From: a virus
Strand: one strand, 5' to 3'
DNA: 41,598 nucleotides
UHGV virus genome: UHGV-0209794
The notes under the pieces were generated by a model that saw only the letters and a list, made by a program, of their open reading frames with translations, did no database searches and was not told the DNA's origin. Positions within the stretch are counted from its first letter, which is position 1. Each line of letters begins with the position of its first letter. Both the position numbers and the translations under genes were made by a program. Positions 3,415-32,508 of the stretch are shown here, piece after piece.

Positions 3415-4461
3415 ATGAAAAATACTGTGAATTTAAACAGTGTAAATTTAGTCAATGATGACTCACTCAGCTATATAAAAACACTTCCCGATAATTGTAT
3501 TGACTTAATCGCAACTGACCCGCCTTACTTTCAGGTGAAGTCTTGTAGTTGGGATAATCAGTGGGAAAACGTAACATCATATTTATCTTGGCTTGATGAA
3601 ATGCTTGCGGAATTTTGGCGAGTTTTAAAGCCTAACGGTAGCCTTTATATCTTTTGCGGTTCGAAACTAGCGTCAGATACAGAATTACTCGTTCGTGAAA
3701 GATTTAATATTCTAAGTCACATTGTATGGGCTAAACCATCAGGACCTTGGCGCAGGGCATGTAAAGCTGATTTACGCAGTTTCTTTCCAAGCACTGAAAG
3801 AATTTTATTTGCTGAACATTATCAAAGTCCATACAAGGGCAAAAGTAGTGCTTATCTTCAGCAATGCAAAGCGCTTAAAGAAAATGTATTTAAGCCTTTA
3901 ATTGAGTATTTTAAATCTGCACGTGAATCGTTAGGAATAACAGCAAAAGAAATAAAACAGGCCACAGGTAAACAAATGGCTTCACACTGGTTTAGTTACA
4001 GCCAATGGCAACTACCGAGTGAGTCTGACTACAAAAAACTGCAGGAGCTGTTTCATCGCGTAGCAAGTGAAAAGTTTAGTAGTAATCCTTTAAATCGTGA
4101 TCATACTGATTTGATAAAGGTGCAGGCTTCTCTTAGTCGAGAGTACCAAGAGCTTGCTGAACAATATCAATTATTGCGCCGTCCTTTTTCTGTCACCGTT
4201 GATGTTCCTTACACCGATGTGTGGACGTATCCACCTGTGCAATATTACGCAGGTAAACATCCTTGTGAAAAACCAGCTGAAATGATGGAACACATTATTC
4301 GCTCAAGCAGTCGCGAAGGTGATCTGGTTGCTGATTTTTTTATGGGGTCGGGTGCAACACTAAAGTCCGCATTAAAGTTAAATCGTCGAGTTCTTGGAGT
4401 TGAACTTGAGAAAGAGCGATTTGAACAAACAAGAGTGGAAATAAATAACATGAAGTCATAA
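3415..4461 (+). CDS. DNA methyltransferase, beta-class N6A/N4C (orphan)
   Basis: N-terminal DLIATDPPYF (motif IV) and C-terminal FFMGSGAT (motif I, FxGxG). The order IV then I indicates beta-class. 348 aa. Confidence 0.75.
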   Translation: MKNTVNLNSVNLVNDDSLSYIKTLPDNCIDLIATDPPYFQVKSCSWDNQWENVTSYLSWLDEMLAEFWRVLKPNGSLYIFCGSKLASDTELLVRERFNILSHIVWAKPSGPWRRACKADLRSFFPSTERILFAEHYQSPYKGKSSAYLQQCKALKENVFKPLIEYFKSARESLGITAKEIKQATGKQMASHWFSYSQWQLPSESDYKKLQELFHRVASEKFSSNPLNRDHTDLIKVQASLSREYQELAEQYQLLRRPFSVTVDVPYTDVWTYPPVQYYAGKHPCEKPAEMMEHIIRSSSREGDLVADFFMGSGATLKSALKLNRRVLGVELEKERFEQTRVEINNMKS

Positions 4462-4723
4462 AGCGGGTTGGCCGTATTTTACATGCTGATGTCATGATTC
4501 AGCCCCGAGTCTCCTAGTAAAGAGCCAGCTTTGCATCTGGTAAGGGTTAATAAGAAAAGAAGCACCGGTAACGAAGCATGAAAGCCAATCGTGCACTGGT
4601 TAGATCCCACAGGGAGCAGAGCCGAACTGGGGTTATAAACTCAAGGGCATGAGCGTGACCACTACGAGAGTGTGGTGAAATTTCATTTCCCATAACACAA
4701 ACAACTCGGACACTCCGTAGGGG

Positions 4724-4999: not shown

Positions 5000-5469
5000 T
5001 GAACCTAAAACAGAAAGTGACAGCAGTTGCGAGTGCTGGCGCTGTAAGTATTGCGATAACAGTGATTGGTTATTTTGAGGGTGTGCGTTATGAACCTTAC
5101 CGCGATGTTGCTGGAATTCTGACGGTTTGTTATGGACACACTGGAAACGACATCATTCAAGGTAAGACATACACACAACAAGAGTGTGACGAGTTACTGC
5201 AGAAAGACTTTATCAGAACGCAACAGCAAGTCGATATCCTGGTTAAAGTGCCGGTCGATGATAAAACAAAAGCTTCTCTATATTCCTTTGCTTTTAATGT
5301 GGGTACCACAGCTTTTGCACGTTCTACATTGCTAAAGAAATTAAATGCGGGTGATCAGTATGGCGCTTGTGAAGAAATGAAACGCTGGGTTTATGCGGGT
5401 GGAAAGGTTTGGCGAGGGTTAGTCAGTCGTAGAGAGGCGGAGTCAGCATTATGCAATGGAAGTCTTTAA
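4999..5469 (+). CDS. SAR endolysin (T4-lysozyme-like glycoside hydrolase)
   Basis: N-terminal signal-anchor-release segment KVTAVASAGAVSIAITVIGYF followed by an EG...D...T catalytic triad pattern (EGVRYEPYRDVAGILTVCYGHT), typical of P1 Lyz / phage 21 R. Confidence 0.75.
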   Translation: MNLKQKVTAVASAGAVSIAITVIGYFEGVRYEPYRDVAGILTVCYGHTGNDIIQGKTYTQQECDELLQKDFIRTQQQVDILVKVPVDDKTKASLYSFAFNVGTTAFARSTLLKKLNAGDQYGACEEMKRWVYAGGKVWRGLVSRREAESALCNGSL

Positions 5470-5611: not shown

Positions 5612-6073
5612 ATGAAGCACTGGAAACTTTACATTGTCGTTGTGATGGTGGGGATTGTTGTTGGTGGTTGTGTACTGATTAATGCACAAACTAAAAGAAT
5701 TAACATACTGATAGAAAAGAACAAAGAACTTACTACAACACTCGAAGAACAAAAGGCTATCAATACTGAATATCAAGTGCGCATAGAGCGACTCAATCAA
5801 CTTGATACAAGACACACACAGGAGCTTGTTAATGCAAAGAATGAAATTAGTCGCTTGCGTGATCTTAGCGAGCGTAATCCTGAGCGGGTGTACATCAAAG
5901 CTGAGTGTCCAAAAAGCGCTACCACTTCCACCTCCAGCGTGGCTAATGCAACCACCGCCCGACCTACTGACACCGCTATCAGAAATTATTGGTTACTCAG
6001 AGAGCGAATAACACAGTCTGAGCAAATGATATTAGGGCTACAAGATTACATTAGGCAGGAGTGCGTAAACTAA
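5612..6073 (+). CDS. i-spanin (Rz-like)
   Basis: N-terminal TM (LYIVVVMVGIVVGGCVL), a coiled-coil periplasmic domain, and an embedded +1-frame lipoprotein ORF. Confidence 0.7.
   Translation: MKHWKLYIVVVMVGIVVGGCVLINAQTKRINILIEKNKELTTTLEEQKAINTEYQVRIERLNQLDTRHTQELVNAKNEISRLRDLSERNPERVYIKAECPKSATTSTSSVANATTARPTDTAIRNYWLLRERITQSEQMILGLQDYIRQECVN
5832..6011 (+). CDS. o-spanin (Rz1-like lipoprotein) embedded in Rz
   Basis: MQRMKLVACVILASVILSGC has a lipobox (LSGC), followed by a proline-rich mature part (LPLPPPAWLMQPPPDLL). It lies entirely inside Rz in another frame, with AGGAG 8 nt upstream of ATG 5832. Confidence 0.65.
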   Translation: MQRMKLVACVILASVILSGCTSKLSVQKALPLPPPAWLMQPPPDLLTPLSEIIGYSESE

Positions 6074-6549
6074 AGTTTATTTAATTTTTCTCTAATACGT
6101 TTTTTTATGGCTCTATATGAGCGCTGGTACTCGCGGGATTTAATTGCATCTCTACCATCAGCGCGTTTAGCACCATCGGGCAGTAAATTGTGCTCGATAT
6201 TAGATGCTCGTTCTGATTGTTCTGCTAAATCGAAATCTCTACGTTGTGAGCGCTCTGATCCAACTGCTAATTCTGTTGCTGTGGATAAATGGGAGTAATC
6301 AATTTTACCCTCATCAATAATTCGCTGTAATTTTTCTCTGTGTTTCTGGCGGTAGGCAACACCAGCTAGAGGTGTAGTGGCTGGGATATTAAATTTATCC
6401 CTATAATCACTCAGGGTCATATGATGAATTTTAGTGATGTGATTAGCGAGAAATGAAAAACGTTTCCCGCACTCCAGGCATTCAATTTTATCGTGAGCTA
6501 GATATTCTGCTAGCTCCTCGCGATTATTGATGCGTTTATTCGTCATCAC
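6070..6549 (-). CDS. Ros/MucR-family zinc-finger DNA-binding protein
   Basis: CLECGKRFSFLANHITKIHHMTLSDYRDKFNIPATTPLAGVAYRQ matches the Ros/MucR C2H2-like zinc-finger signature (CxxC...HxxxHH, MT..EYR.K). 159 aa. Confidence 0.6.
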   Translation of the reverse strand: MMTNKRINNREELAEYLAHDKIECLECGKRFSFLANHITKIHHMTLSDYRDKFNIPATTPLAGVAYRQKHREKLQRIIDEGKIDYSHLSTATELAVGSERSQRRDFDLAEQSERASNIEHNLLPDGAKRADGRDAIKSREYQRSYRAIKKRIREKLNKL

Positions 6550-7033
6550 TGCGACTCACAGTGTACCAATTGTTATCGTACATCAGGTAATTTTCATCGT
6601 CCCATGAGAATATTTCGTCAGTGTCGGTCGGCTCATTGTTACCAAATGTTTTTAGATCATCAATTTTGATTATGTCCTCAATTTTTTGAATATAATCATC
6701 ATCGGAGTTACGAATATAATCAGCTAATTCATTTAATGAGTTACATAGATCAGTGAGTGATTCGGCGTTATTTACAGCGTTAACTAATACATCTAATTCA
6801 GGGTTGTTAGTTTTCATAATATTGTTCTCAACGTTATAGATTGCTGTTTTAGTTCTATTTAGTTGTTCGTTTAACGCCTCAACAATACGATCTGTTGATG
6901 GCGCTCTAGCTGTTCCAGCAACAATGCGTCTGATAGTTCTGTCGCTCATATTCATCAGTTTTGACATTGGCGTTTGCCACTGGGTGCCGAAAATTAATCT
7001 ACCGGCTTGAATTAATTTTTCTCTATCGGTCAT
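6536..7033 (-). CDS. hypothetical protein with N-terminal HTH-like segment and acidic C-terminus
   Basis: 165 aa with SKLMNMSDRTIRRIVAGT (HTH-like) and a DE-rich C-terminal third. Overlaps the downstream gene by 14 nt, so operonic. Confidence 0.4.
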   Translation of the reverse strand: MTDREKLIQAGRLIFGTQWQTPMSKLMNMSDRTIRRIVAGTARAPSTDRIVEALNEQLNRTKTAIYNVENNIMKTNNPELDVLVNAVNNAESLTDLCNSLNELADYIRNSDDDYIQKIEDIIKIDDLKTFGNNEPTDTDEIFSWDDENYLMYDNNWYTVSRSDDE

Positions 7034-7072
7034 GCTGTCTCTCTTATTGCTCCCATTATCTCTAGGGGGTTG

Positions 7073-7456
7073 TTAAATGATTGGTGATAAATCTTCGTGA
7101 TGAACCCATGAGTTAGTTACACAGTCAAAATAAGGTTTTACTGATAACAGTTTGTACGCACTGGTGTTAGATATTTTCTCGCCGTGCATGTAGGCATAAC
7201 TGATGTTCCCAGTGTTATAAAACCCAATTTCTAATCCGAAAACGGCTTCTAATTTGTCGTAATTGATATACACACGACGTTTGCCGTAGTTTTCCCAAAC
7301 CGAGCAACCTAATTTAATTAACTTAGAGGTTGTTGATTCTACTGTGTGGTACAGGCTACGCAGGGCTAACATAAATGCGATGCGGTAGTCACCAACAACA
7401 GAAACTGTGCTTTTAGCGATTTTATGAGCTGATGTGAATAAAGCTGATTTGTTCAT
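7073..7456 (-). CDS. hypothetical protein
   Basis: 127-aa ORF, first gene of a three-gene minus-strand cassette between the lysis and packaging modules. Confidence 0.4.
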   Translation of the reverse strand: MNKSALFTSAHKIAKSTVSVVGDYRIAFMLALRSLYHTVESTTSKLIKLGCSVWENYGKRRVYINYDKLEAVFGLEIGFYNTGNISYAYMHGEKISNTSAYKLLSVKPYFDCVTNSWVHHEDLSPII

Positions 7457-7845
7457 TTTGAAACCCTCTGGTTATCGGTCGGGACCGTTCCCTTACCGTG
7501 ATTAAATAATATCACTGTCCTAATATTAGGTCAATAAATTTATTCGATATATTGTGATTTGAACCACAAATAGTTGCCTCACAATAGTGGGGGGGCCATA
7601 AGGCGTCGCATTGTCGCCGTCTCTTATGTTAGCCATGACCTGTTTTATTCTCAGCAGATAGCGCATAGTGAGAGTCAAAAACAATGAATACCGCCATTTT
7701 GTTATTTTTCGGTCATTATCAGCAACGTCAGCTGTAGGTAGAAGAAAGGGCGTGACAACCGGAGAGACGAGTACAATTCATAAGAGTCAATCACAAAGCC
7801 TATTTTAACGAATGGGCTTTTTAATAGGCTAAGGAGATAAACACA

Positions 7846-8856
7846 ATGGCAAAACCGGATTGGGGGATGCTACAACAACAGTTCCTCGCCGAACATGCTA
7901 TAACAGGAATATCCCCTAAAGAGTGGTGCGAACTAAAGGAACTAAACTACGCAACAGCACGACGATATATCAAAATATCCAGTGCGCAGAATGCGCAAAA
8001 AACTGCGCACAAGAAATTGCGCACTGCGCAGAAAAAAGAATGCGCAAAAGAGCCAATGCGCAAGAGTGATATACCCGATGCGCAGAGTAATGAATCCAGT
8101 AATGCGCATGATGATCAAAACACCTTTAGTCTGCGCAATTACGGGCTTACTGAGTTACAGGCTAAATTCGTTAATGAATACCTTATTGACCTAAATAGGA
8201 CTGCTGCATATAAGCGTGCTGGTGGTAAATGTGAAGGAAATACGGCATACGCAAGCGCAAGTCGGATGTATAGAAATGTTAAGGTTAATCGGGCAATCAC
8301 TGACGCTTTAGCAGAACGGGAACGCAGAACAGAGATAACCCAAGATGCCGTATTAAAAATATGGTGGGATATTGCAACGGCAGACGTTAACGAACTGACT
8401 GAATACCGTCGATTATGTTGCCGTCATTGCTGGGGCTTTGGTTTCAATTACCAGTGGCGTGATTCAATAGAGTTTGAAGATGCCATTAAAAAAGCGCTTA
8501 CAGCCAATAAACCTCCTCCACAAGATGTGGGCGGTTACGGTTACGATGAAACATTAGATCCAAATCCTGATTGCCCTCGTTGTAACGGTGCCGGTATTGG
8601 TCGTGCGTACTTTCATGATACGCGTGATTTAACAGGGCCAGCTCGTCGAGTATTTGCAGGAGTGAAAGAAGGTAAGTTTGGTGTCGAGGTTATCACTCGT
8701 AATCAAGATGAAGCGCTTAAGATGGTTGCACAGCATTTAGGTATGCTGAAGAACAAGACGGAGTTAACGGGTGCCGATGGTGGACCTATCAAAACAGAGA
8801 TAGCTAACTTGTCACCTCAAGAAGCATCTGACGCATATAAGCAAATCATGGGGTAA
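7846..8856 (+). CDS. terminase small subunit (Terminase_2-like) with long N-terminal extension
   Basis: LTELQAKFVNEYLIDLNRTAAYKRAGG...ASRMYRNVKVNRAI is typical of TerS. 336 aa is long for TerS. It lies directly upstream of terL. Confidence 0.7.
   Translation: MAKPDWGMLQQQFLAEHAITGISPKEWCELKELNYATARRYIKISSAQNAQKTAHKKLRTAQKKECAKEPMRKSDIPDAQSNESSNAHDDQNTFSLRNYGLTELQAKFVNEYLIDLNRTAAYKRAGGKCEGNTAYASASRMYRNVKVNRAITDALAERERRTEITQDAVLKIWWDIATADVNELTEYRRLCCRHCWGFGFNYQWRDSIEFEDAIKKALTANKPPPQDVGGYGYDETLDPNPDCPRCNGAGIGRAYFHDTRDLTGPARRVFAGVKEGKFGVEVITRNQDEALKMVAQHLGMLKNKTELTGADGGPIKTEIANLSPQEASDAYKQIMG
7983..8137. repeat. array of 10 copies of palindromic hexamer TGCGCA within terS (candidate pac site)
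   Basis: TGCGCA at 7983, 7993, 8005, 8018, 8024, 8040, 8056, 8079, 8103 and 8132, i.e. 10 copies in ~155 bp against about 1 per 4 kb expected by chance. Confidence 0.6.
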
Positions 8857-27254: not shown

Positions 27255-28760
27255 ATGACAACTATTTTTAAAACCCCCTTTGCAACACAAGGGGATAAGG
27301 CTTCTATACCCGTAGAAATCCAGCCAGACGGCTCAGTGTCTTATACACAAGGTTATGGTTACGACTATGAGCGTGACCAAGTCACAGATCCTGCTGCGAA
27401 AGATATTGAACGTGAAAAAATGAACGGGATATTTCACGATATCACGGAAGCGATTGGCGAAATTCAGCGATTTGGTTTTCCCAAATGGGATGAAGCCGGT
27501 AAGCCGTATGCGATACGCACTATTGTGTATCATAAAAATAAAGTCTGGCAGTCTAAAGTTGAGAATAACAATATTGAGCCAGTTGCCGGTAATGCATGGG
27601 CTGAGCTAAAAGCTGATATCACCGCGAATGAAGTGGGTGCTTATAACAAAGCCGAGGCTGATAAACGTTTTCAACCATTAGGTAATTACACACCATCTGG
27701 TTATAGTTACTCAAAGGCAGAAACCGACACCAAATATCAGCCAAAGGGTAATTATGCCCCAGCAGGGAACTACGCAAACAAAGGGGATAGTTACACAAAA
27801 ACGGAAAGTGACGGTCGATATCAAGCGAAAGGGAGTTACCAACCGTCTGGTAATTATGCACTAGCAGGGGCATCGTATATTAAGGCAGAATCAGATGGCC
27901 GATATCAACCTAAAGGAAATTATTTACGTACAGATAGTACAGGGGATACTAAATTATTTAATTACGGTGTTGGTAAGCACGCTTATATAAGTTGGAATGA
28001 AGGAGGAAAACGTACTGCATATATTGGATTTGGTAATGATGGTGCAGATGTATTAACTATTAACAATGTTAAGCAAGGTGGATCACTTGGTATCTACAAA
28101 GATAAAATAACGCTTAATAGCCAAACTGTACTTACTGATAGTAACGGTTATACACGCGATATGTCAGATGGAAAATTTCAACCTAAGGGAAACTATGCAA
28201 CAGCTGGAAGTAGCTACACAAAAGCGGAAAGTGACGGACGTTATCAAGGTAAGGGAAATTACCAACCAGCGGGCAATTATGCGCTAGTAGGAGCATCGTA
28301 TACTAAGGCAGAGTCTGATGGTAAATACCAACCAAAAGGCAGTTATCAAGCTTCTGGTTACAGCTATTCAAAATCAGAATCAGATGGTAAGTATCAGCCT
28401 AAAGGGAGCTATGTACCTAATACACGAAAGATTAATGGTAAGCAATTGAGTTCTGATATCAGTATAAACATTGGAGATATTAAACTAAAAAACGCGCGTA
28501 AAATTTGGAATGGCAACGCTCCCCAAGGCACATTAATAAAACTAAATGAAAGTATTAAGGGTTGTTTGTGTGAGTTTGGGGTAGCCGAAGAGAATAAATC
28601 AACAATTGCTTTTGTATCTCCTAGGCCAGTAAAAACAGTTATTAATATTCGTCAAGGTGCAACAGGATTTGTTGATATTATTATTGAGCCAGATGGACGA
28701 GGATTCACAGTGTTAGGTGCACAATGGGCGACATTGAAAGACATTTGGATACTTGAATAA
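27255..28760 (+). CDS. tail fibre protein with tandem fibre repeats
   Basis: 501 aa with about 9 tandem copies of an SY(T/S)KAESDG(R/K)YQPKG(N/S)Y-type repeat (residues ~125-385) and a distinct C-terminal domain. Confidence 0.7.
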   Translation: MTTIFKTPFATQGDKASIPVEIQPDGSVSYTQGYGYDYERDQVTDPAAKDIEREKMNGIFHDITEAIGEIQRFGFPKWDEAGKPYAIRTIVYHKNKVWQSKVENNNIEPVAGNAWAELKADITANEVGAYNKAEADKRFQPLGNYTPSGYSYSKAETDTKYQPKGNYAPAGNYANKGDSYTKTESDGRYQAKGSYQPSGNYALAGASYIKAESDGRYQPKGNYLRTDSTGDTKLFNYGVGKHAYISWNEGGKRTAYIGFGNDGADVLTINNVKQGGSLGIYKDKITLNSQTVLTDSNGYTRDMSDGKFQPKGNYATAGSSYTKAESDGRYQGKGNYQPAGNYALVGASYTKAESDGKYQPKGSYQASGYSYSKSESDGKYQPKGSYVPNTRKINGKQLSSDISINIGDIKLKNARKIWNGNAPQGTLIKLNESIKGCLCEFGVAEENKSTIAFVSPRPVKTVINIRQGATGFVDIIIEPDGRGFTVLGAQWATLKDIWILE

Positions 28761-28772
28761 TATTATAAACAC

Positions 28773-28815
28773 CCCTTACATTCTTATTATATATATTAAT
28801 GTAAGGGAAATTTTT
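28773..28815. terminator. bidirectional intrinsic terminator between convergent tail fibre and acetyltransferase genes
   Basis: 10-bp inverted repeat CCCTTACATT...AATGTAAGGG with an AT loop, flanked by A/T runs. Confidence 0.45.
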
Positions 28816-28817
28816 AA

Positions 28818-29435
28818 TTACCAAATTTTTCTATTATCTTTTTCTGAGAGTCTGAGTGTATTACTGATTTTTGGCGTATAAACAACCATGTTATCTGGTA
28901 TATTATTATTAATAAAACTCATTGCACCAACCATGACATTATTACCAATTTTAATATTATCACCTATGATGCAAGAGTTCGCACCAATAGTTACATTATT
29001 TCCGATATGGATTTTTCCTTTTTGACCAGAATATAGTATACCTATAGTTGTATTTTGTCTTACGTGAAAATTTTCACCAATAATTGTATCGTAGGCTATA
29101 ACTAAGCCAACATAGTGGCTAATCGATAATCCGACGCCAATTTCTGCTCCAACATCTATATCGCATCCATATTTTGCACGAAGTCGTCTATTTATATAGT
29201 TAGCCATAAAGATACTTTTATTTGATTTATATAGAAAACTAGCTATTCTCCACCAGAAATAAAAACGACGCTCAGGATATTTCCATGCTCTTTGAATTGT
29301 TCTTCTCCATGAAAACCCCTTTGTGTCAGATTTTATAACTTCTTTTTGTAAACAAAGTTTTAAAAATTCTATTTGTGAATGGTTCATATAAATACGCTTA
29401 TAAAATAAGTTTTTTATATGATAGTTTATCAACAA
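28818..29435 (-). CDS. hexapeptide-repeat (LbH) O-acetyltransferase, CysE/WcaB-like
   Basis: C-terminal VGAEIGVGLSISHYVGLVIAYDTIIGENFHV...IGNNVTIGANSCIIGDNIKIGNNVMVGA hexapeptide repeats align with serine/sugar O-acetyltransferases. AT-rich island; the true start may be the second Met. Confidence 0.6.
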   Translation of the reverse strand: MLINYHIKNLFYKRIYMNHSQIEFLKLCLQKEVIKSDTKGFSWRRTIQRAWKYPERRFYFWWRIASFLYKSNKSIFMANYINRRLRAKYGCDIDVGAEIGVGLSISHYVGLVIAYDTIIGENFHVRQNTTIGILYSGQKGKIHIGNNVTIGANSCIIGDNIKIGNNVMVGAMSFINNNIPDNMVVYTPKISNTLRLSEKDNRKIW

Positions 29436-29445
29436 TCGATAATCA

Positions 29446-29697
29446 TTAACTTTTTATAATTGATTTACCATCAAAATACTTTTCCAACTTCTCAAACAAA
29501 TCCCTCGCCACAGCCTCCGTCATATACGTCCTCATCGGTTCCCTACGAACATTCTTCATTTCAAACGTATTCTCATCAAGCTTTGGATCAGAAAAAACAA
29601 TGTCCATAAACAAGTAACCATAAGGGTTATCTGCAGATAAACGAGCTTCTTCTAACTGAGCAATATATTCCGCATTATTGATTTCAAGCTTAATCAT
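29446..29697 (-). CDS. hypothetical protein in moron operon
   Basis: 83-aa ORF packed between the DinI-like and acetyltransferase genes. Confidence 0.35.
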   Translation of the reverse strand: MIKLEINNAEYIAQLEEARLSADNPYGYLFMDIVFSDPKLDENTFEMKNVRREPMRTYMTEAVARDLFEKLEKYFDGKSIIKS

Positions 29698-29721
29698 GGT
29701 ATCACCTATTTAACTGTGTTT

Positions 29722-29967
29722 TTATGCAGGAACCCATGAATCATCGAGCCAAATTTCTTCAATGATTTGGTTTATTTCTTTAGCATCATCATCATTTTTG
29801 GTACCGCTTACTATTAGTGATGTTGATGAACTTAAGGCCACTCTGACGTTTAAAGAACCATATTTGTTTCCGACTTTTTGAATGATTCTCTCACGAAGGG
29901 CATCGCGTACTTTTTCTGAGGGTTTGTTGCTAGATTCTTTATCAAAGAGAATTTCAATACGAGGCAT
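29722..29967 (-). CDS. DinI-family protein
   Basis: MPRIEILFDK...LNVRVALSSSTSLIVSGTKNDDDAKEINQIIEEIWLDDSWV parallels E. coli DinI (MRIEVTIAK...VSVRYAAANNLSVIGATKEDKQRISEILQETWESADDWF). 81 aa. Confidence 0.7.
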   Translation of the reverse strand: MPRIEILFDKESSNKPSEKVRDALRERIIQKVGNKYGSLNVRVALSSSTSLIVSGTKNDDDAKEINQIIEEIWLDDSWVPA

Positions 29968-29997
29968 AATGTAATCTCCATGTGTGTTGTTTATCTT

Positions 29998-30017
29998 TAC
30001 TGTATATATAACCAGTA
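29998..30017. promoter_or_regulatory. LexA (SOS) box TACTGTATATATAACCAGTA overlapping promoter of dinI-like operon
   Basis: 18 of 20 matches to TACTGTATATATATACAGTA, about 30 nt upstream of the DinI-like ATG. On the minus strand it is flanked by TTGATA-N17-TTATAT. Confidence 0.55.
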
Positions 30018-30039
30018 AAATAATTTTTTATCAAGCACA

Positions 30040-30350
30040 GATGGAAAATTTTTGTGTTACTGGAAGGGGGATTTTTGTGTTACACGTAAAAACAACAGAA
30101 AAGCAAATCGCAACACAAGATATTAATTTATTGATTTACAATGCATTTAATATGATTGATACACATATCGCAGTTAATACAGCGTTTTGTAATTAATAAA
30201 GACATATCAATAATTTACATTTAATTAAGTTAATAATCAGTAACTTATATCTTGCACCTATTAGTTACTATCGTCTGTTACTTGTGTTTTTATACAGTAT
30301 GATTTACATTGAATAACTCTAATTCGTAACACAAAACCGCAACACATACT
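30040..30350. other. candidate attP / integrase arm-type site region
   Basis: AT-rich noncoding stretch just upstream of int. It holds direct repeats TTTTTGTGTTAC (30049-30060, 30072-30083), an inverted copy GTAACACAAAA (30326-30336), and CGCAACACA at 30109 and 30338. Confidence 0.25.
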
Positions 30351-30421
30351 GTTTTTACTGCTCTTAAAATACCTAATGTGTGAGCTTTAAATTTAATGTG
30401 TTGAAATACCGGAGTATTTCA

Positions 30422-31822
30422 ATGTCAAATATAGCAACACAAAAGCAAAAAACACCAGATAATGATGAATATACAGACGCTCTTAGTCGTTGGGAGTCAT
30501 GTAAGCCACCTTACACAAGTACACACATAAGAATCTGTGTTACTGCTGTCAAAACCATTTTAAAGCATATCAATAAACCACGTCGCTCTAAATATGAAAA
30601 AGAGCACTACTTGCGTATTGATTTTAGTAAGGCGGGTAAGGTTACCATATACGCGGAATATCCTAAACACATGGATATAAAAGGCCAGAAATTAGGGGAA
30701 TGGCCAGAACTATCATTACCAATAGCAAGAGAGAAAGCGAAAGCATTAGCTGAAGAAGGGCTAAGAGCTGAATCTGTTCATCAACTATTAGATCTTTATG
30801 AAAAAGATTTAGCAGGGAAAGTCGAACGCTCAAAGTTAAGTGAAAATAGTTTTTATACTTATCGTTGCAGAGTAAAACAACTGAAGCTAACGTTCGGATC
30901 GCGTGAAGTTTTTAGTGATGTGAAATACTCACGATTAATAGAAATATTGGATAATTGGATACAAACAAAATCAAATAATCATGCATTAGAGTTATTTGCT
31001 GAGATGCGCCGATTTTGGAAATATGCATCCCCCATTTATTCTAATGGAAGAAATATTGCGTCGAGCATTCCTGATGATTATGTGTCGTCACGGGTGCAGA
31101 AACCCATGCCAACGAAACGATATACTGATATTGAGTCCATTGCCACCTTATGGATGAACGTTGCTTCAAGCACCTCTGTGCATCAAAAAAATGCAGTTAG
31201 ATATATGATCCTCACTGGAGTTAGACCAATCAATGTTGTCAATTTGAAGTGGGAATATGTTGATTTAGATAACTTAGAAATAACTTATCCAGCTGGTTTA
31301 ATTGGTATGCGTGGTGCAATGAAAACTCAAAAAGAGTTTAGAGTGCCAATTACAAAGGCAATGAAAAGCTTACTCGAGGAACAATTAGCTTGGAAAAATT
31401 CCACTGTTAATTGCAATAAAGAATATGTTTTCCTACAACCTAGAGATCCACAATTAGCGTTTTCTAAACGTTCATTGGATAAATTAGTTAAAACATATAG
31501 CCCTGAAGGGGCGGTGAAGGGTGTAGTGCATGAGGGAACGGTGAAGGGAAAGTCCGGAGCATTTAATACTATGTGCCGTAAGTTTTTTAAAAGTAATATA
31601 ATTGCACAAATGCGTCAAAAAGGCTTTTCACGTTCTGATACTAAAGAAATTAGCATGCTATGTTTACATCACTCTGATAAAAGTGAAGATCCAATGGCTG
31701 AACATTATGACTTTTCTGATGAGATACTGCAGGAAGAGATAGCGCTAAAGCGTCAAGCATTTGAGGCACATGAAAATAGTATCTTGACTCAAGTAGCGCT
31801 ATTACGTCGTAAACTTAGTTAA
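30422..31822 (+). CDS. tyrosine-type integrase (phage integrase family, atypical C-terminal motifs)
   Basis: LTGVRPINVVNLKWEYVDLD (box I Arg) and FRVPITKAM, with Tyr near the C-terminus (EHYDF). Start taken at ATG 30422, which has GGAG 7 nt upstream; the ORF track starts at 30380. Confidence 0.6.
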   Translation: MSNIATQKQKTPDNDEYTDALSRWESCKPPYTSTHIRICVTAVKTILKHINKPRRSKYEKEHYLRIDFSKAGKVTIYAEYPKHMDIKGQKLGEWPELSLPIAREKAKALAEEGLRAESVHQLLDLYEKDLAGKVERSKLSENSFYTYRCRVKQLKLTFGSREVFSDVKYSRLIEILDNWIQTKSNNHALELFAEMRRFWKYASPIYSNGRNIASSIPDDYVSSRVQKPMPTKRYTDIESIATLWMNVASSTSVHQKNAVRYMILTGVRPINVVNLKWEYVDLDNLEITYPAGLIGMRGAMKTQKEFRVPITKAMKSLLEEQLAWKNSTVNCNKEYVFLQPRDPQLAFSKRSLDKLVKTYSPEGAVKGVVHEGTVKGKSGAFNTMCRKFFKSNIIAQMRQKGFSRSDTKEISMLCLHHSDKSEDPMAEHYDFSDEILQEEIALKRQAFEAHENSILTQVALLRRKLS

Positions 31823-32094
31823 TAAGTGCTTCTACATTTTTCAATAAATGCTTTTATATTTTTGTACTCGTATCGAACAACTTTATTGGTAAATTTGATT
31901 GGTGCGAGTATTTTTCTGTGACGATGTCTATTATTCCAATCGCATAATGTTTTAGTGCTAATTCCTCCTAGTTCAATACAAGCCTCTTCAGGAGTTAACA
32001 TATCATCATCTTCATACTCTTTGTTTTTAACGTTATCTGGGATATTTGTCGTTTCTTTTTTTGTTTTGCGTTCTACGCATACGTCTGTTTTCAT
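31819..32094 (-). CDS. AlpA/excisionase-family HTH protein
   Basis: LTPEEACIELGGISTKTLCDWNNRHRHRKILAPIKFTNKVVRYEYKNIKAFIE is AlpA/Xis-like. The start at 32094 is preceded by GAGGCAAGACCGAA; an alternative shorter start lies at 32001. Confidence 0.5.
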   Translation of the reverse strand: MKTDVCVERKTKKETTNIPDNVKNKEYEDDDMLTPEEACIELGGISTKTLCDWNNRHRHRKILAPIKFTNKVVRYEYKNIKAFIEKCRSTY

Positions 32095-32266
32095 TTCGGT
32101 CTTGCCTCATCATATTAGATATTAACAAGTCGGCAGTCTGACAAGCATTTTTTATTTCTATATCGGTGCAAGATTTATTTTTTATACTCGATGCAAGCCG
32201 GCCTAATTTAATATCAAAATCTGTTAATAATTGAGAACCTGGTTCCCAAGGTGTTAATAATTTCAT
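32033..32266 (-). CDS. hypothetical small protein (uncertain)
   Basis: ORF-track frame starting at MKLLTPWEPG. It overlaps the AlpA-like ORF by ~60 nt, so one of the two starts is probably wrong. Confidence 0.2.
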   Translation of the reverse strand: MKLLTPWEPGSQLLTDFDIKLGRLASSIKNKSCTDIEIKNACQTADLLISNMMRQDRNENRRMRRTQNKKRNDKYPR

Positions 32267-32508
32267 GGTGGTTACCCATTGGTCTTGAATAAACCACCAT
32301 GCTAATAACAACGAAAAGTAAAAACTGATTATGCTTAATCAACTTTTTACTCGAATAATTCCCTCCACTGGATAGCATTCTGCAATTTTCCCTTTGGTCG
32401 CGAGTAATTCCTTATCAATTAAACAATTTTGTTCATCAGGATAAATGTAGCCATAGGGTTCGAACTGACAAATCATCGAACTACATACCAAAAGGAATAA
32501 ACCATACA

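Follow-up and report, generated by a model that had tools for sequence, protein, structure and literature searches.

Operons of the acr-aca type, in which small and variable anti-CRISPR (acr) genes precede a small DNA-binding anti-CRISPR-associated (aca) gene, share a published layout: an inverted repeat lies over the promoter, the start is found 10-15 nt downstream, a hairpin occupies the beginning of the 5' untranslated region and the start codon has a fixed position (PMC13551039). Here, we analysed a three-gene cassette (g1, g2 and g3) in the virus genome UHGV-0209794, of which the whole stretch of 41,598 nt is referred to as the window. Like the acrIF8-aca2 operon of Pectobacterium phage ZF40, the cassette combines a strong promoter with an inverted-repeat operator and has a hairpin-capable leader after the start (PMC6765145, PMC13551039). 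It also resembles acr-aca operons in its small variable first gene, which is followed by a small, putatively DNA-binding gene, and in its position in an accessory slot of a temperate phage, as acr-aca operons occupy such slots in temperate phages and plasmids. Unlike in acr-aca operons, however, g2 falls into no described Aca family, the cassette has no validated Acr or anti-defence match, and a third, conserved zinc-finger gene follows the regulator; zinc-finger regulators are named only as an open question in the 2026 survey of Aca proteins (PMC13551039). On balance, we give even odds to a reading of the cassette as an acr-aca-type accessory operon that controls its own expression, with g2 as autorepressor, g1 as cargo and g3 as a conserved DNA binder acting elsewhere. 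We favour this reading because the layout fits published acr-aca operons and because three related loci (L022, L010 and L006) show counter-defence company. The features on which the argument draws are the following (aa, amino acids; CRP, cAMP receptor protein):

5612-6073, plus strand: Rz gene, lysis end of the late region
6070-6549 (GTG start) or 6070-6546 (ATG start), minus strand: g3, 159 aa from GTG or 158 aa from ATG
within g3, minus strand: N-terminal Cys2His2 finger (residues ~10-75), recognised by Pfam, profile and fold, and helical C-terminal half
6536-7033, minus strand: g2, open reading frame of 165 aa
7073-7456, minus strand: g1, open reading frame of 127 aa
7457-7499, minus strand: 5' leader, hairpin-capable at 7476-7498 directly after the predicted start, then a GAGGG ribosome-binding site
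7534-7506, minus strand: sigma-70 promoter with -35 element TTGACC (7534-7529), 17-nt spacer and extended -10 element TGaTATTAT (7514-7506), 10/12 consensus
7519-7530: perfect palindrome of 12 bp, CCTAATATTAGG, which lies within the promoter spacer and extends over part of the -35 element; putative g2 operator
7553-7568, minus strand: CRP-like site TGTGG-N6-TCACA, centred ~61.5 bp upstream of the predicted start (class I position), one mismatch to TGTGA-N6-TCACA
7846-8856, plus strand: small terminase gene, start of packaging

The product of g3 carries a Ros-type zinc finger, and the operon plan around such finger genes recurs. At ~12 independent loci, the operon ends with the finger gene, whose start either overlaps the stop of a small gene ahead of it or directly adjoins this stop. 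This partner gene is recognisably or putatively DNA-binding and belongs to at least seven unrelated families (HTH, helix-turn-helix; RHH, ribbon-helix-helix):

g2-type: window, L008, L013, L015, L017, L020, L021 and L026
69-70-aa HTH proteins: L002 and L006
Aca2 (Pfam Aca2_YdiL, E 3.9e-20): L022
114-123-aa proteins: L016, L018, L023, L024 and L025
two families, possibly RHH-like, judged by eye and without domain match: L004/L060 and L019/L061
51-aa protein: L010

Zero to two small variable genes precede the partner, and most of their products are very acidic (isoelectric point (pI) 4.0-4.8). Across the loci seen, at least ten unrelated small proteins fill this cargo slot, without annotated function bar one YccJ-like protein; the literature searched contained nothing on YccJ in anti-defence. 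Many anti-defence proteins are likewise small and acidic. A 68-73-aa acidic family with the motif FGR.N.DGNVDIL, for which neither Pfam nor PHROG gave a match, provides the first gene in four unrelated elements (L004 4922-5143; L024 4253-4459; L025 249-455; L019/L061 ~4286-4495) and can be regarded as candidate cargo.

Every recognised promoter of these operons carries a palindrome in or over its spacer, and the sequence of this palindrome goes with the partner family rather than with the finger. The fingers of the window and L002, for instance, are 84% identical, whereas their operators (CCTAATATTAGG and TGCATTCAATGAATG, respectively) are unrelated. The operon in L022 consists of an 89-aa acidic gene, Aca2 and the finger, and contains the repeats GTCG-N6-CGAC in the promoter and TTCG-N9-CGAA in the leader, to be set beside the known Aca2 cores TTCG-N6/N8-CGAA (PMC6765145). 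It thereby has the appearance of a genuine acr-aca2 operon to which a finger gene was added; neither its cargo nor its finger gave a tblastn match in 50,697 phage records. L010 has two divergent promoters that both carry the operator (T/G)GACCGGTCA in their spacers; one serves the anti-restriction gene ardA, the other the operon of the 51-aa gene and the finger. Three copies of it were found against 0.17 expected, a number reached in none of 200 shuffles. The copies, of the form (T/G/C)GACCGGTCA, are at 5077-5086, 5663-5672 and 5735-5744, the third being upstream of the next gene (158 aa). The arrangement resembles a small regulon in which a single operator is shared. In L006, an AcrF8-Aca2 pair is located ~1.5 kb from the finger operon.

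The 114-123-aa partner family (motif RL..I..RY, PHROG 14350) also occurs free of the finger, at L066 5938-6189, downstream of a g1 homologue. The promoter palindrome there is TGTATGACATATGTCATACA, and L024 and L025 have the degenerate version GTATGACA.ATGTAATAC. These observations support the assignment of this family as an operator-binding regulator.

Within the window, the cassette promoter is the sole strong sigma-70 match between 5500 and 8000, a range that contains 2 sites where shuffled sequences would have 7.4, and it is kept in L008 and L013; the initial annotation of the window, which had given the cassette a promoter region of its own, was correct in this respect. From the -35 element to the ATG, the window and L008 are ~90% identical. 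The palindrome CCTAATATTAGG in the spacer is unique in the 41.6-kb window even when two mismatches are allowed. Upstream of the promoter lies the CRP-like site, whose occurrence in the window (2 matches, with 1.68 expected) has no significance in itself. Among 18 related promoters, such a site with at most one mismatch occurs in four (shuffle mean 0.1, maximum 2), all of them enterobacterial and with similar distances, and with at most two mismatches in ten (shuffle mean 1.6, maximum 5), mostly enterobacterial. The site is perfect in L002 and has one mismatch in L008 and L022. This distribution suggests that the operon is controlled by cAMP-CRP. DNA homology between the window and L008 ends at 7570, by the CRP-like site, which marks the upstream edge of the module.

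The leader is conserved as well. Over six operons its mean column identity is 81%, while the corresponding g2 proteins are 22-28% identical. The leader sequence (TCACGGTAAGGGAACGGTCCCGACCGATAACC...) is much more strongly conserved than the flanking proteins in L008, L015, L017, L021 and L026, and is kept in L021 despite a swap of the first gene. The g2-type regulator could have a second binding site here, at the level of either DNA or RNA, in the way reported for Aca1 and Aca2.

The Ros/MucR family (Ros of Agrobacterium, PDB 2JSP; MucR of rhizobia, Brucella and Caulobacter) shares with g3 a Cys2His2 DNA-binding domain, both in sequence and in fold. The initial annotation had recognised this finger in the last gene, and we arrive at the same assignment by independent routes. 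Pfam ROS_MUCR (PF05443) matches with E 2e-14 and 54.1 bits (cut-off 25.4 bits), and a g3 profile matches the nuclear magnetic resonance structure of Ros87 (2JSP) over residues 10-74 with E 1.1e-14. The g3 structure model has a predicted local distance difference test score (pLDDT) of 87.5, and Foldseek aligns it to 2JSP with probability 1.0 and a root-mean-square deviation of 2.7 Å over 65 columns at 35% identity. In the zinc motif C23-X2-C26-X9-H36-X4-H41(H42), residues C23, C26, H36 and H41 are invariant in 18 homologues. The protein is basic (net +8). Its C-terminal half is helical and conserved, with the motifs RRDFDLAEQSERA and GAKRADGRDA..REYQR.YR, and gave no match in a structure search of the PDB. 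The high-confidence model ends in an amphipathic helix (residues 134-157), which is missing from the short forms of the finger family (127-136 aa; L006, L015, L017 and L022). Neither a toxin fold nor a toxin family was found in g3, which consists of finger and helices only.

In contrast to Ros and MucR, g3 has its finger at the N-terminus instead of the C-terminus, a different helical C-terminal half and no MucR-like N-terminal self-association domain, and its gene is found on gamma- and betaproteobacterial phages and plasmids. Of the 123 positions in the ROS_MUCR profile, the match spans no more than 58-118, and as the finger begins at residue 15 there is no space for the domain, which we therefore judge to be absent. 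In MucR, the self-association domain (~residues 1-55; minimal fragment 17-47) is needed for oligomerisation, DNA bridging and silencing (PMC9410896). The analogy to H-NS-like silencers drawn in the initial annotation is hence not supported for g3. Close homologues in Proteus and Pectobacterium assemblies have prophage-like surroundings and bear the existing label 'MucR family transcriptional regulator'. As the self-association domain is missing, a gene so labelled in an enterobacterial phage or plasmid need not encode an H-NS-like silencer, and the finding corrects an easy mis-annotation of such genes.

Full-length homologues of g3 are rare, forming 19 clusters in 5.8 billion proteins; at E <= 1e-30, 51 representatives (50%-identity clusters) were found among 1.84 billion. 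Homologues of the finger with E <= 1e-10 number roughly 880. They stem from Proteus and Pectobacterium prophages, viral contigs, a conjugative element, and Oceanisphaera and Duganella genomes. The initial annotation had called a Ros/MucR finger unexpected in a phage of gammaproteobacterial type. This surprise does not survive a wider search: MucR-family finger genes are present on 240 enterobacterial plasmids, 233 of them conjugative (tblastn), besides the prophage-like homologues in Proteus and Pectobacterium and other phage proteins. The 'MucR family' genes of IncN and IncL/M plasmids are like g3 in encoding an N-terminal Ros-type finger in a protein of ~165-169 aa on enterobacterial mobile elements, and differ in that their C-terminal half is HTH_23-like instead of the GAKRADGRDA helical type, with ~45% identity over the finger. 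On IncN plasmids the gene is situated in the leading region, close to ccgAI and to the known counter-defence gene ardB, on IncL/M plasmids downstream of the transfer genes. Fingers on gammaproteobacterial mobile elements are not unusual; what appears to be new is the C-terminal domain of the subfamily and the constant position of its genes as the last ones in acr-aca-like operons. Our literature search for links between MucR-type fingers and Aca or anti-defence loci, or between MucR and phage-encoded proteins, returned nothing relevant.

A further parallel is the CUP/ArdK-ArdR regulon in the leading region of pKM101 (R46), where repressor control over repeated promoter/operator units leads to transient expression of establishment and anti-restriction genes, reminiscent of L010. 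We considered ArdK and ArdR of IncN plasmids as a possible Ros/MucR precedent, but neither is a finger of this kind: the ArdK protein of R46 belongs with the KorA-like HTH proteins (E 6.7e-10), and Pfam gave no match for ArdR.

Some further observations concern the finger itself. Its profile also matches proteins with many fingers (P0090, P0077, P0167 and others), with up to 13 stretches in a protein of 2042 aa and 7-9 in proteins of ~1100 aa; to our knowledge, tandem multi-finger Ros-type proteins have not been described in prokaryotes. Foldseek gave weak matches of g3 to two larger phage proteins annotated as endonucleases (BFVD A0A8S5QGQ1 and A0A127AWE2; E 0.013-0.021, probability 0.96-0.97), and the finger region has tblastn matches in the SPO1-like Bacillus phages SPO1L5 and Goe9 (E 7e-7). 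In such endonuclease-annotated and SPO1-like phage proteins, the finger may be a DNA-targeting module.

The middle gene had been described as having an HTH-like N-terminus and a very acidic tail. The tail is indeed acidic (residues 66-165, net -19, pI 4.05) and follows a basic part (residues ~1-65, pI 11.2), whereas the HTH-like N-terminus reaches only sub-threshold scores: HTH_3 matches with E 0.003 and 17.9 bits, below the 23-bit cut-off, and the same kind of sub-threshold match is seen in five of six members of the g2 family. A g2 profile gave nothing significant in the PDB (best E 0.11), tblastn found no g2 match in the 50,697 phage records, and the comparison with described Aca families was equally negative. 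Members of the g2 type with CCTAAT-core operators (loose in L021) have in common the recognition-helix motif SDRTIR, although the proteins are only 23-28% identical; the g2-type protein of L026 has NDSTIR instead, and there the operator is different. Taken from these sequence correlations, g2 is probably an autorepressor in the 'aca position'.

As the initial annotation had stated, the first gene belongs to no recognisable family: g1 (pI 9.0, basic) gave no match in Pfam, NCBIfam, PADLOC or the annotated PHROG families. Its first 40 residues match PHROG 12732 (E 6.5e-6), and its homologue in L026 (34% identity, E 2e-18) matches Pfam Phage_Gp111 (E 3e-9); the N-terminus of g1 is a helical hairpin similar to Gp111 and PHROG 12732. 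The C-terminal domain shows the conserved pattern W.K.GK.R.YIN...Y.TGNIS.A..GE.ISN..AYKLL and is fused elsewhere to other N-termini, in high-GC, integrase-bearing loci. The structure model of g1 is poor (pLDDT 67, predicted template modelling score 0.39). A homologue with 64% identity adjoins an integrase in L066/L067 and is accompanied by neither g2 nor g3. We consider g1 a putative exchangeable cargo gene.

Exchange is also visible at the level of whole operons. The strict trio g1-g2-g3, whose co-occurrence the initial annotation had proposed to check, is conserved only in Proteus prophages, where it occurs in three backbones (the window lineage, L008/L009 and L013); beyond these, a looser form is found in L026 and the genes are separable. 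The g3 gene pairs with at least six partner families besides the g2 type, and a g2-type gene and finger are found with other cargo in L015/L017, where the first gene is unrelated to g1, and in L021, where a 52-aa acidic gene replaces g1. Comparison of the window and L008 indicates that everything from the CRP-like site through g3 is transferred together. The finger gene also recombines alone: homology between the window and L002 is limited to 6071-6546 and begins exactly at the g3 start codon. Finger operons adjoin integrases, lie on a conjugative element (L004) or are situated beside tail genes (L024/L025).

The window itself is a temperate phage of ~41 kb with a GC content of 37-46%, and many Proteus mirabilis assemblies hold exact copies of its genes. 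Its plus-strand late region encodes the antiterminator Q, a DNA methyltransferase, holin, lysozyme, Rz, the small and large terminase subunits and the portal protein. The three co-oriented minus-strand genes oppose this late operon between Rz and the small terminase, exactly where the initial annotation had placed them. Its description of g2 and g3 as operonic likewise stands; the overlap of 14 nt, by contrast, applies only to the GTG start of g3. The ATG at 6546 is used in six of seven independent annotations, and homologues begin there with MT(N)xKRINNR, which makes it the more likely start, with an overlap of 11 nt. The stops of g3 and Rz overlap by 4 nt, and no terminator was found between the two genes, so that late and cassette transcription converge. 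Compared with the L008 copy, which is 80% identical and sits in another phage backbone, the ratios of non-synonymous to synonymous substitution rates (dN/dS) are 0.11 for g1, 0.13 for g2 and 0.10 for g3, to be read with synonymous sites near saturation (dS ~1). By this sequence measure, all three are real genes under purifying selection. In the lineage with the same terminase, the cassette is present in all seven contigs displayed, which represent 24. Among sequenced phages, the Rz gene was the sole match to near-identical DNA and the terminase region had none. The earlier classification as a moron or accessory locus agrees with these data, as the cassette has its own promoter in a slot at the lysis/packaging junction, and the module or parts of it recur there in phages with different lysis and packaging genes. 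Lambdoid morons such as lambda bor likewise use the lysis/packaging slot, opposite to the late operon and with their own promoter and dispensable-looking cargo; bor, however, is a single lipoprotein gene, whereas the cassette would be a self-regulated three-gene operon of DNA-binding proteins and cargo.

How would such an operon work? In the mechanism that we propose, the near-consensus sigma-70 promoter would drive g1, g2 and g3, probably aided by host cAMP-CRP bound at about -61.5. A dimer of g2 would bind CCTAATATTAGG in the spacer and switch the operon off once sufficient protein is present, and with this feedback, expression would peak briefly when the phage enters and then settle at a low, constant level in lysogens. 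The first gene would be exchangeable cargo, while g3 would be the constant element, made in step with g2 via the overlapping stop and start codons. And what would the finger protein do? Most likely it binds DNA elsewhere, in the host or in the element itself, because no conserved g3 site was found in its own promoters: a k-mer census of 17 regions upstream of finger operons yielded no common DNA motif apart from the surroundings of the start codon and, in 6 of the 17, a partial ACAAACAA. Owing to the missing MucR self-association domain, g3 would act as a site-binding factor rather than as a bridging silencer. To judge from the genes that accompany such operons, they may help the mobile element to establish itself or to counter defence. 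The genes, their domains, the promoter, the palindrome, the recurring layout and the correspondence between operator and partner family are observations; from these we infer the binding assignments, the CRP control, the target of g3 and the counter-defence role.

Several points weigh against this interpretation. None of the cassette proteins in the window matches a validated anti-defence or Aca family, and a second DNA-binding gene behind the 'aca' gene lies outside the known acr-aca plan. The operon in L010 comprises a regulator and the finger with no cargo, therefore the finger may be payload and not a co-regulator. The basic g1 differs from the cargo of the other loci, which is acidic. The independent loci are few (~12), their anti-defence neighbours are anecdotal, and gene calls in the high-GC relatives are heuristic. 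The leader hairpin has no statistical support (minimum free energy -13 kcal/mol, z -1.08, one compensatory pair in six sequences). Finally, for a cassette that faces the late operon with no terminator in between, expression in the lysogen fits at least as well as an early burst.

The last point leads to a different view, in which g3 is a regulator of lysogenic conversion: expressed from the prophage under CRP control, it would be the phage counterpart of a xenogeneic silencer or 'stealth' protein and repress genes of the host or the prophage, either as a nucleoid-associated protein or at specific sites, with g2 only setting its dose and g1 as an unrelated passenger. A constitutive-looking promoter with a CRP-like site, opposing the late operon without a terminator, is typical of lysogen-expressed morons, and the minimal unit in L010 is just a regulator and a finger. 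MucR proteins favour AT-rich DNA (PMC8857273), g3 is basic, its modelled helix 134-157 could self-associate, and related finger genes are found on the 233 conjugative plasmids mentioned above. The bridging and silencing domain of MucR is absent from g3, however, the short family forms of L006, L015, L017 and L022 do without the terminal helix, and the variable acidic cargo, the Aca2 partner and the co-regulation of ardA would be left unexplained, which is why we think this view rather unlikely, although it is a serious alternative. A pair of regulator and anti-regulator, similar to toxin-antitoxin systems, strikes us as quite improbable. Here, a dose-sensitive g3 would be restrained by an acidic, DNA-mimicking polypeptide, namely the C-terminal domain of g2 or separate proteins in the relatives, in an addiction, abortive-infection or switch module. 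Many unrelated upstream families do pair with one downstream family, as in the mix-and-match of type II toxin-antitoxin systems, the stop/start overlap suggests a fixed stoichiometry, and, with L010 as the only exception, all finger operons have a gene for a strongly acidic polypeptide (net charge between -5 and -21) next to that for a finger protein, which is basic in the case of g3 (net +8). Yet g3 lacks a toxin-like domain, L010 lacks the acidic partner, Aca2 in the partner slot of L022 is a known pure autoregulator, and the acidic proteins are mutually unrelated, which makes a conserved contact with g3 unlikely.

The initial annotation had named exclusion, defence and host regulation as cargo that accumulates in such loci. 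The slot at the lysis/packaging junction, the opposite strand and the own promoter would suit a prophage-encoded defence or superinfection-exclusion system, and g2 shows similarity to BrxC helical and KwaB regions at E 0.0035 to 0.04, all below threshold. PADLOC gave no significant match, however, with g2 against a BrxC helical region (E 3.5e-4, 16.8 bits) as the sole hit and none for g1 or g3; the three small proteins contain no enzymatic, membrane or nucleotide-binding effector; and the conserved neighbours of the relatives, that is the Aca2 partner, the co-regulated ardA and the nearby AcrF8-Aca2 pair, belong to anti-defence and not to defence. We hold a defence function to be very unlikely, and the earlier proposal is not upheld in this part. 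The least convincing alternative, with hardly any weight in our assessment, treats the genes as ordinary regulators of the phage life cycle, such as an antirepressor or a module timing late expression or lysis. Two of the three proteins are DNA binders and a pRha-type regulator gene adjoins the cassette in L008, but the varied contexts of finger operons, near integrases, on a conjugative element and beside tail genes, with related genes on plasmids, imply that they are not bound to the regulatory circuit of one phage. Moreover, the g2 operator is found nowhere else in the prophage, and matches to known repressor, antirepressor or Q families are missing.

If the acr-aca-type reading holds, the small finger subfamily would become a new anchor gene for counter-defence cargo, including g1 and the acidic proteins of the relatives, and would answer the question of the 2026 Aca survey about DNA-binding folds beyond HTH and RHH. 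A bolder version of this idea, which is possible though doubtful at present, sees the protein with N-terminal finger and GAKRADGRDA motif as a conserved, hitherto overlooked component of establishment or counter-defence operons in phages and plasmids of Proteobacteria. The 'anti-defence-associated' class would thereby gain its first zinc-finger protein, which would act in trans, e.g. as a repressor of host defence loci or as a mark or shield on incoming DNA, and could be used as an anchor for guilt-by-association searches. Should the reading fail, the locus would still be a clean, modular and self-repressed moron with a possible CRP input, which is useful but ordinary.

Other features of the window lie outside the cassette. 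A hairpin, AAAGCCTATT-ttaacg-AATGGGCTTT, followed by T-rich sequence, is located at 7793-7826 on the plus strand, directly 5' of the ribosome-binding site of the small terminase gene, and may be a terminator or attenuator that is read through by late, Q-modified transcription. Searches for tRNAs and Rfam families gave no matches in the window. Two DNA methyltransferase genes, one of the D12-class N6-adenine type and one of the N6_N4 type, are encoded on the plus strand at 246-1049 and 3415-4461, the N6_N4 gene between Q and holin; in the stretch examined, no restriction endonuclease is evident. Orphan methylases often serve self-protection from host restriction. After the tail genes, a stretch of low GC content (0.32-0.37) extends from ~28000 to 32500, with open reading frames at 28818-29435 (minus strand), 30380-31822 (plus strand) and 31819-32311 (minus strand), and may represent a second accessory or moron region.

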